This document shows, piece after piece, positions 41,622 to 44,065 of a DNA stretch of 64,000 bases (position 1 is the stretch's first letter; each line of letters starts with the position of its first letter). Source of the DNA: Nitrosopumilus sp. (GTDB lineage: Archaea; Thermoproteota; Nitrososphaeria; Nitrososphaerales; Nitrosopumilaceae). The translations under genes and the position numbers were made by a program. The notes below the pieces were generated by a model. That model was not told where the DNA came from. It ran no database searches and saw only the letters and a list, made by a program, of their open reading frames with translations. Location: positions 2,208,001 to 2,272,000 of the forward strand of contig OZ243974.1 of NCBI GenBank assembly GCA_965214775.1, in the 5' to 3' direction.

Positions 41622-41626
41622 TGTAG

Positions 41627-42746
41627 TATATGAAAAGTCGGTTCGCTAGTCATCTGCGTCCCTCTCCATCCATTTTGCGTCCTTCTTCCTGATCGCTTCC
41701 GTTGCCTCCTTGCTTCTAAACGCCAGAAGCGGCGTCTCACAGTTGGCAATGTCAAGCGAAAAGTGAAGCCTTCTCTCGTTGTAATAGTCCACGTACTGCC
41801 TCAGGCCGTCATAATGCCCTATCTCCTCCTCGATGGTGCGATGGTTTTTGCCTCGCAAGACAGCCAAAAGACGGGCAGGTCATAATGCCCTATCTCCTCC
41901 TCGATGGTGCGATGGAGCCTCTCCAGCTTGCCGTTGGTCTGCGGGTGATATGGCCTGGTGTTTATCAGGATGATGTCCCGTGTAAGCAGCTCCTCTTCAA
42001 AGAGCGTGGGCTGCCACGTCCCCATGCCGGTGCCGCCTTTGGAGGCCGCCTTTTTTCTGCCGTTCTGTCCTACAAAGCACGAGCCATTGTCAGACAGTAT
42101 GGATGCAGGCGTGCCAAACCTCTCGATCGCCAGCCTGAGTGTCATTACGGCGTTCTCAGAGGTGGCATGCTCAAATAGTGCGGCCCCCGTAATGCACCTT
42201 GAGGCATCGTCAAGATACGTGACTAGGTTGAGTCCCTTTAGGCGCGGATCCTTCATTTCATGCCAGTCCACATGCCACATCGCGTTGGAGTATTTGCGCT
42301 CAAAGCGGACGTATCCCCTCTTTTTTGATTTTGCCGCAGACGGAATCACCAGGCCGTTCTTCTTCATTATGCGGTATACTGCACGGTAGCTTGTATTGTG
42401 ATTGTGCCTCAGCCTGCCTGCGGTGCGCAGTACGCCTGTCGGTTCGCCCTCGTGCGTCCCGGTCACCAGACGTATCTGGGCTGCCGTGACCGGGACATGC
42501 GGCCTGCCCATTTTCACGCGCGTCGTACCTGTTGCCTGGAACCTGGCCCACAGCCTCCTTACATGCCTTGCCGTGATGTTCAGATCCTTGGCTATCTTGG
42601 AGGACGCGACGCCTTTCTTGCACTGTCTTACTAGGTACTGCCGTGACTCTTCTGTCAGTATTTTTTTCATGGTTTTTCGTGATCGGTACAGCCTAAAATA
42701 GTCCGCTATTGTCCTCCTGATCCTAGGCGGACCGACTTTTCGTACA
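41627..42746 (-). mobile_element. IS481-family IS; transposase 42670-41646 frameshifted by a 71-bp insertion
   Basis: 20-bp TIR TGTACGAAAAGTCGGTCCGC / TATATGAAAAGTCGGTTCGC; WHVD, LDDASR, SDNG, PQTNGKLER, YN..R.H.SL. Confidence 0.92.
41808..41915. repeat. 37-bp repeat / 34-bp unique insert / 37-bp repeat
   Basis: GTCATAATGCCCTATCTCCTCCTCGATGGTGCGATGG at 41808-41844 and 41879-41915. Confidence 0.95.
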
Positions 42747-42782
42747 ATAGAGCTGGCGGTTTGATCGTTTGAAAACCAAGAA

Positions 42783-44065
42783 GGCGTTGTCCGGAATTTT
42801 TCCAGAAATCTACCGATAAGCTTATAGATCATAAGCGCAGGATGCGACAACCTTATGGATCATAGGATCGACGTCCCCGTATCAATGAAATCAAAGACCA
42901 ACAAGAAGGAATCCAAGAAGGAATCCAAGAAGGAATCCAAGAAGGAATCCAAGAAGGAATCCAGCAAGACCAGCAAGAAAAAAAAGTCAGAGTACACGAG
43001 ACCTCCGGAATACTATGCCGAGTACGAGAAAAAAAGGAGAGAGGACAGCAAGAGGTGCGGCATCGGAATCAAAAAGATCCGCAAGATCCTCCTGTCCCTC
43101 CTCCATAACACAGAGCAAGAGGATGAAATTCCCTATCTTCTGTGCGTACTCGACATGGAGTACCGCGGAAACTCGTATCGCAGACACGTCGAATACATGG
43201 AGTCGAATCCTGGTTCAACTAACATGTACGGGCTCAAAAAGGTTCCGGCCAAGTCGACACTGCATGATGCAGCCGTAAGGATAGCTGCCTGGGACAAGTC
43301 GGTGCTAAGATCGGTACTCTCAGAACAGGCAGGCGCAGACGCCAGGGGAACGTTGCTTGGCGACTCTAGCGGTTTCTCCATAATGAGATACCACACATGG
43401 GAGGACGCAAAGAAGGGCGTCATATCCAGGCAGATGTTTGCCAAGCTGCACATACTGTTGGCCCCGCACGGCAAGATTGCCGCCTGCGAGGTGACGCCGG
43501 GCGAATTCCATGATTCCCCGGTGTTCCGTAACGAGCTGCTGCCGCAGGTTCCCAACGGCACAGGACACGTGATCCTGGATGCCGCATACGACTCGTATGA
43601 GAACTGCAGGGTCATAGCCGACGGAGGCAGAACCCCAGTGATATGTCCGCGTACAGGATATACGGTTCACGGGTTCAACGCCCGCTCCAAGATGCTAAGA
43701 TGGCACAAAAAGGACCCCGAGGGATTCGAGAAGACGTACCACCAGCGCAGCCTCGTTGAGTCGGCCTTCTCGTCGATAAAGGCAAGGTTTGACTCCACGG
43801 TGCGCGCCATGTCGCTTCCGATGCAGTCGCTCAGGCTTACCCTCAAGGTATTCTGCTACAATCTGGTCAGCTAGGATCCATAATGCCGGTACGGTGGAAT
43901 CGTCCGGCTAGCGGATGCTATGCAGTATGACGTCAAAACACGGGCCATAACTGCACAATGCGGGCCGGAGTGCGGATTCGTCTCTATGTTTGCAGTCATT
44001 GCGCCATGATTTTGTACAAATCTCCCCGGAAATCACGTCCTAAAATCACGATTCCGGACAACGCC
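42783..44065 (+). mobile_element. Intact IS5-family IS (1283 bp); transposase at 42855-43874
   Basis: 15-bp perfect TIR ggcgttgtccggaat, 9-bp TSD aaccaagaa; GDSSG, KLH, LDAAYDS, RSLVESAFS. Confidence 0.95.
42903..42962 (+). repeat. 12-bp tandem repeat, 5 copies (KKES)
   Basis: aagaaggaatcc x5. Confidence 0.95.

Follow-up and report, generated by a model that had tools for sequence, protein, structure and literature searches.

A stretch of 64,000 nt from the chromosome of a Nitrosopumilus sp. (GenBank assembly GCA_965214775.1, contig OZ243974.1; referred to here as the window) was found to carry, within an IS481-like transposase gene, a 37-bp sequence that is perfectly duplicated on either side of a unique 34-bp insert. 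The window corresponds to positions 2208001–2272000 of the single contig of 2,833,656 bp that represents this genome. With a probability of roughly 0.87, the unit is a natural ectopic integration of a CRISPR spacer that knocked out one copy of an insertion sequence (IS). The genome holds about 30 events of this kind, the present unit among them.

According to this explanation, the Cas1-Cas2 integrase, together with Cas4, would have carried a 34-bp prespacer to the transposase gene instead of the leader-proximal repeat, and would have joined it there by two strand transfers, one on each strand and staggered by 37 bp. Filling of the gaps would then have left a copy of the 37 bp on each flank of the spacer, with a frameshift in the transposase as the outcome. 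The site was probably chosen because it resembles the leader–repeat junction of the resident type I-B array (array A), and the stagger was probably set by the integrase's own ruler, since 37 bp is also the repeat length of that array. An initial annotation, made from the window alone, had proposed a natural off-target acquisition, and this proposal is supported by the presence of cas1 and cas2 in the genome, by the match in size, by the empty sites in other IS copies, by the existence of a family of similar units and by the mimicry of the array junction.

Structure of the unit and of its host insertion sequence

The unit and the elements that contain it are listed below by their positions in the window.

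41808..41844, plus strand: pseudo-repeat 1, the left-hand copy of the target duplication; 37 bp from the coding part of the transposase gene, forming a perfect direct repeat, single in other copies of the IS
41845..41878, plus strand: the 34-bp insert (ectopic spacer), single-copy in the window and in the genome, of a length found in 16 of 67 array A spacers
41879..41915, plus strand: pseudo-repeat 2, the second copy of the duplicated target, with the same sequence as 41808–41844
41802..41818, plus strand: 17-nt mimic of the array A leader–repeat junction, matching at 14 of 17 positions
41646..42670, minus strand: IS481-like transposase gene in which the 71-bp insertion breaks the reading frame, as judged from open reading frames (ORFs), the rve domain and restoration in silico
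41622..42752, minus strand: the entire IS copy, about 1060 bp long once the insertion is subtracted, delimited by terminal inverted repeats and by the limits of homology with three other copies

The two 37-mers are identical and start 71 bp apart, giving two matches where none was expected from 100 shuffles, and the initial description of a perfect 37/34/37 unit in a transposase was right in every detail. The insert is a single-copy sequence both in the window and across the 2.83-Mb genome, in line with the earlier observation that the window holds no source for it. Its longest other genomic match is only 14 nt, and it is therefore neither locally templated nor an IS end. Read on the plus strand, the 34-mer has the orientation of CRISPR RNA (crRNA), provided that the left junction is the leader-like side.

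The host IS copy is approximately 1.13 kb long, is bounded by imperfect 23-nt terminal inverted repeats (41624–41646 and 42727–42749, 83 % complementary) and has several full and partial copies elsewhere in the genome with 95–99 % identity. Its minus-strand transposase contains an rve core (47.1 bits, cut-off 32.6). The best NCBIfam match was to IS481, with 167.3 bits for an intact copy and 156.9 bits for this copy; as both scores lie under the model cut-off of 224, the enzyme is referred to as IS481-like.

Alignment of this copy with three others revealed a single clean 71-bp gap, the 37-mer being present once in each of the other copies, and 17 paralogous empty sites of the insertion were found genome-wide. 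The 71-bp insertion is the derived state of this IS copy. Removal of the 71 bp in silico gave 954 nt encoding 317 aa and a stop, with no internal stop and with 315 of 318 positions equal to those of an intact copy. With the insertion in place, the ORF is cut short at 283 aa rather than 317, the break lying just past the ...NGKLERLHRTIEEEIGHYD stretch, so that the earlier claims of a restorable 317-aa ORF and of an inactivated transposon were both borne out.

The resident CRISPR-cas system and its resemblance to the unit

No cas genes are present in the window, as had been noted from its sequence, the cas operon being located about 176 kb away at 2.425–2.433 Mb of the genome. The gene order (a 591-aa protein, cas7/Csh2, cas5h, cas3, cas6b, cas1, cas2 and cas4, followed by archaeal ribosomal protein genes) is that of a type I-B system; the 591-aa protein had no profile match and was assigned to cas8b by position only. 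Cas1 (336 aa, 218.6 bits), Cas2 (44.1 bits) and Cas4 (85.6 bits) all scored above their cut-offs. Cas1 and Cas2 each have a single genomic copy, and the same Cas1 was the sole match when the Cas4/Cas1 fusion of a relative was used as the query. A search of the genome for a second Cas1 or Cas2, or for a remnant of a Cas4/Cas1 fusion, found none.

Array A (2420114–2425007) lies directly downstream of the operon and comprises 68 repeats of 37 nt. Its 67 spacers include three of 33 nt, 16 of 34 nt, 25 of 35 nt, 12 of 36 nt and five of 37 nt. The leader was placed at the 2425007 end, because ATTGAAAC terminates the repeat when it is read on the minus strand, the sole variant repeat stands at the distal end and the cas genes border the 2425007 side, which is the customary rule for orienting an array. 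At the leader-proximal end (2424477–2424825), aberrant spacers of 57, 29, 30 and 50 nt were observed, all confined to the first seven units from the leader. The 57-mer includes a degenerate piece of repeat, and the remainder of the array is regular. Recent acquisitions in array A may therefore have been sloppy.

A second array, array B (1977219–1978062), consists of 12 repeats of 36 nt with spacers of 36–39 nt. No cas genes were found within about 9 kb on either side, making it an orphan. Its repeats end in CCCCATTGAAGC, and the last repeat is degenerate, with six mismatches.

The dimensions of the unit agree with those of the array beside the cas genes, the 37-bp duplication equalling the array A repeat and the 34-bp insert having the length of 16 of its 67 spacers. 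The resemblance extends to the integration site. The site CAGGCC/GTCATAATGCC, in which the slash marks the border, agrees with the array A leader–repeat junction CAGGCT/GTCGTAATGAC at 14 of 17 positions, whereas only six of 17 positions agree with the array B junction. A score of at least 14 was reached by 30 of the 5,667,280 positions on both strands of the genome, with a 17-nt comparison frame that was picked after looking at the data; 12 of these positions lie in array A itself, eight are the same site in copies of the host IS and 10 are elsewhere. With other comparison frames the numbers of positions scoring as high were 2734 (−5 to +5), 1246 (−10 to +10) and 351 (−10 to +15), or 6e-5 to 5e-4 of all positions. 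Amongst the 32 core units of the family described below, the unit in the transposase gene is the best mimic of the array A junction, the runners-up scoring 11, 10, 9 and 9; the mean of the null distribution was 5.3 (standard deviation 1.6). As a means of assigning units to array A or array B, junction similarity was decisive for this unit only.

Beyond the junction the resemblance is limited. Only 17 of 37 positions agree between the pseudo-repeat and the array A repeat, and the pseudo-repeat ends in ...GCGATGG, without the 3' ATTGAAAC end. Cas6b needs the 3' handle of the repeat, and processing by Cas6b would therefore not be expected; the unit is probably inert as a source of crRNA. The suggestion that it might be a snapshot of the birth of an array is not supported for this unit, which has one spacer only and no repeat that Cas6 would be expected to recognize.

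A family of similar units in two genomes

A genome-wide count was made of perfect, non-tandem direct repeats no shorter than 25 bp at spacings of 30–300 bp. The 70–79 bin contained 52 of them, whereas the four lower bins held 3, 12 (40–49), 3 and 5 and the higher ones 4, 0 and 3; the 11 repeats at 150–159 form a separate, unrelated group. A mismatch-tolerant scan of spacings 66–78 returned 60 units. Ten were removed before counting, the removals comprising seven members of an eight-copy repeat family internal to an element, three tandem repeats with a negative ‘insert’ length and one two-copy unit belonging to a three-repeat locus. This left 50 single-copy units with spacings of 67–76 bp, among them 72 (13 units), 73 (15 units) and 74 (11 units), and with duplications that were most often 36 bp (14 units) or 37 bp (10 units), followed by 35 and 38 bp (five units each). 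The genome thus holds dozens of units of the same size as the one first noticed. In nearly all of them the direct repeats are perfect, as precise loss of units through recombination between such repeats might explain.

Some of the outliers are protein repeats or have blurred borders, and a core set was therefore used for statistics. It comprised 32 units with a duplication of 35–38 bp, not more than one mismatch and an insert of 33–39 bp, after exclusion of one collagen-like repeat. Outliers with short duplications were partly in-frame protein repeats in long ORFs (spacing 72 or 69) or carried mutations or indels at one repeat edge; in those with long duplications, microhomology of 2–5 nt shifts the apparent border. 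Insert length falls as the duplication lengthens (r = −0.92), which had at first pointed to a ‘constant sum’ mechanism; this idea was dropped in view of such protein repeats, edge mutations and microhomologies among the outliers.

Empty-site paralogues were found in the same genome for at least 13 of the 50 units (unit 10462 is one example). Paralogues within the genome were used because relatives in the genus, at only 68–79 % DNA identity, were too divergent.

A common target motif was obtained by reading each core unit from its two ends towards the centre, which yielded 64 half-sites. Bonferroni correction was passed by four positions, namely −3 (G in 29), −2 (G or C in 47), +1 (G in 27, T in 7) and +2 (T in 26, G in 6), and nominal bias was seen at −4, −1, +4, +6 (A in 30), +7 (A in 29) and +11. 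The array A junction GGCT/GTCGTAA agrees with this motif at −3, −2, −1, +1, +2, +4, +6 and +7, and its other end, read as the reverse complement GTTTCAAT, agrees at +1, +2, +4, +6 and +7.

The inserts differ from the spacers of true arrays in their content. Matches elsewhere in the same genome (E ≤ 0.001) were found for the inserts of 20 of the 50 units and of 13 of the 32 core units, compared with none of the 78 spacers in the two arrays (67 and 11). Five inserts were identical over their full length (100 %) to single distant loci, and others matched IS-like repeats. Given the contrast between 13 of 32 and none of 78, the inserts behave as unselected spacers; self-targeting spacers would be purged from expressed arrays, and would do no harm at sites without a flanking repeat suited to Cas6. 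Of about 15 self-protospacers with a unique placement, six (2358344, 2405741, 2445016, 2516412, 2575684 and 2615427) lie about 200 kb or less from the CRISPR-cas locus (2.42 Mb), an observation that is a lead only, the interval of 2.36–2.62 Mb having been picked after looking.

One locus may have gone further than a single insertion. At 1266835–1267015, one 36-bp local sequence is present in three copies, between which lie unique inserts of 36 and 37 bp, with periods of 72 and 73, the first copy deviating at its 5' end. This looks like an ectopic site that was given two spacers, in other words a proto-array.

The scan was repeated on a complete genome from the same genus, referred to as G009 (2.19 Mb, 37 % G+C). 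Here 29 direct repeats fell at spacings of 70–79, compared with 0–3 in nearby bins, and a further four at 140–149. Duplications of 36 bp were the most frequent (nine), followed by 37 bp (six), 38 bp (four) and 33 bp (four); the units were mostly 36/36, and the half-site motif was similar to that described above. Two arrays are present: one with 30-nt repeats, which adjoins a type I-B Cas1b-Cas2-Cas4 module, and one with 36-nt repeats of the array B family, which adjoins a Cas4g/Cas1g fusion (713 bits, cut-off 560) and Cas2. One ectopic insert agrees at all 36 nt with a spacer in the 36-nt-repeat array of the same genome, and this is a direct link between the ectopic units and CRISPR adaptation. 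In addition, two units took the same protospacer on opposite strands. Matches within the genome were found for 11 of 27 inserts, eight of them originating from 748–808 kb (contig C1, loci L039–L058 and L063–L153), a stretch that is probably a provirus or other integrated element.

Four G009 units in the first 190 kb of contig C1 (5187, 34477, 41414 and 186739) combine a 33-bp duplication with inserts of 38–40 bp and fit neither array of that genome. Another observation concerns the IS first described: 18 nt of its duplicated 37-mer (window 41818–41835) are matched exactly by a spacer of the G009 36-nt-repeat array (from G009 position 2002283, E about 9e-4), and an IS related to it may have been a CRISPR target in G009.

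A relative that lacks Cas1 (G002) was sampled over 396 kb (18 % of its genome). The sample gave one repeat at a spacing of 72 (duplication 30, insert 42) and no unit with a duplication of 33–40 bp, compared with four to nine repeats at spacings of 70–79 in slices of equal size from the Nitrosopumilus sp. genome.

The genome of 2.83 Mb is the largest among the listed members of the genus (0.7–2.4 Mb) and is crowded with IS copies, and many of the ectopic units lie within these. Near the unit in the transposase gene, at window positions 42890–42985, a 12-bp tandem repeat of about six copies of CAAGAAGGAATC encodes the KKES run that opens the neighbouring DDE_Tnp_1 transposase ORF (42855–43874); this repeat is present at several other sites in the genome and is therefore part of another multi-copy IS.

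Alternative explanations and relation to known off-target integration

The most likely agent of the integration is the resident I-B Cas1-Cas2-Cas4 module, which is favoured by about three to one over a lost second module for this unit because of its 37/34 size and its specific mimicry of the array A junction. A since-lost type I-G-like module (a Cas4/Cas1 fusion with Cas2), once the partner of the orphan array B, is the less likely source; this variant still involves ectopic integration and falls within the probability given at the outset. It would account for the modal unit in this genome, a 36-bp duplication with inserts of 36–38 bp as in array B, and for the lack of cas neighbours at array B, and it has a counterpart in G009, where an array of the same family stands beside such a fusion and the units are mostly 36/36. 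The unit in the transposase gene, at 37/34 with a spacing of 71, fits it poorly. None of the 11 array B spacers is shorter than 36 nt, and amongst the 130 spacers of the related G009 array seven are of 35 nt and none is of 34 nt. The site also resembles the array A junction more closely than that of array B, and no second Cas1 or Cas2 remnant remains in the genome. For the 36-bp majority of units, the source may be either the resident I-B integrase with a default stagger of 36 bp or the lost I-G-type module.

Replication slippage, template switching or end joining could in principle yield direct repeats around inserted DNA, as a short tandem duplication with filler DNA, and the role of an enzyme here is itself a deduction. 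Such a process is strongly disfavoured. It would not produce the sharp peak at spacings of 71–74 with duplications of 35–38 bp, nor a junction motif equal to that of a CRISPR leader–repeat junction, nor intact inserts from distant loci or an insert held in common with a true array in G009; furthermore, the insert in the transposase gene is not locally templated.

An assembly or sequencing artefact is very improbable, even though the host IS has many near-identical copies beyond the bridging capacity of short reads, and a contig from public run X8 omits exactly the 71 bp, as other IS copies would give. Depth in the bin of the insert was 21.6, 26.7 and 21.5 in public runs X1, X3 and X4, from three studies, near that of the single-copy flanks (15.3, 9.67 and 12.4), and dozens of units share the same architecture with differing sequences, many of them in unique DNA. 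Equally improbable is the insertion or footprint of a tiny mobile element making a 37-bp target-site duplication, since the architecture is transposon-like but the 34-mer is single-copy and every unit has a different insert, as would not be expected of a transposon or miniature inverted-repeat transposable element, and no transposase is known to make duplications of 36–37 bp.

Some observations count against the preferred explanation, ectopic integration by the resident module. The right-hand half-site of the unit fits the target motif only in part. Most units in the genome have a 36-bp duplication and inserts of 36–38 bp, closer to array B than to array A, and because this majority fits the orphan array better the resident module may not be the source of the whole family. 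Amongst the contigs of public runs, no listed piece spans the insert, its presence being suggested only by the bin depth in the three runs named above. We infer the agency of Cas1-Cas2, the identity of the module and the order of the two attacks from sequence.

The origin of the 34-mer, which the initial annotation had hoped to trace together with a protospacer-adjacent motif (PAM), is a further point on this side. No source was found in the genome, by exact match in viral contigs, by exact match of a 24-mer core in metagenome contigs, with up to three mismatches in 300 other genomes of the order, or at E values up to 1 in phage and plasmid collections. These blank searches do not show a foreign origin. 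No PAM was found for the 34-mer, and the flanks of the self-derived protospacers of other units had no consistent motif in either genome. A TTT upstream, seen in three of about nine cases in the Nitrosopumilus sp. genome, was rejected as evidence for a PAM.

Off-target integration of spacers by Cas1-Cas2, giving rise to neo-CRISPR loci, has been described in Escherichia coli (Nivala, Shipman & Church 2018, as cited in 10.1101/148544, PMC7054753 and PMC6698737). As in the present units, a spacer-sized insert is accompanied by a repeat-length duplication at a non-CRISPR site resembling the leader–repeat region, and the process was proposed as a route to new arrays. The E. coli study dealt with a type I-E system, over-produced Cas1-Cas2 and supplied oligonucleotides, whereas the units described here are fixed events in the genomes of wild archaea that carry type I-B and I-G modules, number in the tens per genome, have many self-derived inserts and include one three-repeat locus. 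For natural cases, one of these sources, a preprint, refers only to ‘circumstantial evidence’ in two other species (10.1101/148544).

The target preferences are close to those of Pyrococcus furiosus Cas1-Cas2 in vitro, for which non-CRISPR sites showed G1, T2, (T3), A6 and C−3 and paired attacks one repeat length apart, at sites only about 40 % identical to the repeat (PMC6698737). The G at the attack site, T2, A6, C or G at −3/−2 and the fixed repeat-length distance are common to both; the P. furiosus experiments were performed on plasmids with a 30-bp spacing, whilst the insertions described here are fixed in vivo at 36–37 bp. In the type I-B system of Haloarcula hispanica, disturbance of the anchor motifs in the repeat shifts the duplication by 1–3 bp (PMC4872114), comparable to the 35–38 bp spread at the present sites, which lack such anchors. 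That work concerned a 30-bp repeat in the true array of engineered strains, in contrast to the non-array sites reported here. Ectopic spacer acquisition in Streptococcus thermophilus likewise places spacers away from the leader-proximal repeat, in that case into a true repeat within the array (PMC7999890, PMC5338259) and not into unrelated coding DNA. A full-text literature search that covered neither supplementary files nor subscription papers turned up no account of ectopic spacers occurring naturally and genome-wide in archaea.

The mechanism is thus known from the laboratory, from over-produced E. coli proteins and from work in vitro, and the interest of the present units lies in their natural scale, in the contrast between self and non-self inserts and in their replication in a second species. 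The signature occurs about 30-fold in a wild archaeal chromosome, with internal empty-site controls, a target motif and a two-spacer proto-array, and it bears on the natural rate of off-target integration, its cost to the genome and its capacity to seed new arrays. In each of the two species about 30 putative ectopic spacers are fixed in the chromosome, representing approximately one-tenth to one-third of all retained spacers. We consider the chances to be even that, in this genus, integration outside arrays is a major and ongoing outcome of CRISPR adaptation, in which the ectopic spacers, largely derived from the cell's own DNA or from resident proviruses, as they would escape counter-selection outside an array, break IS copies and genes and sometimes seed three-repeat proto-arrays. 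If so, these genomes would preserve, free of selection, a natural archive of the DNA taken up by Cas1-Cas2(-Cas4) and of its points of attack, and would give a direct view of the way in which new arrays can arise. The site preference and ruler of the integrase in vivo, the share of self DNA captured before selection, and the pace at which proto-arrays are born and lost can now be tested from sequence data alone. The unit in the transposase gene and its family probably represent a rare natural record of a CRISPR immune system misfiring.

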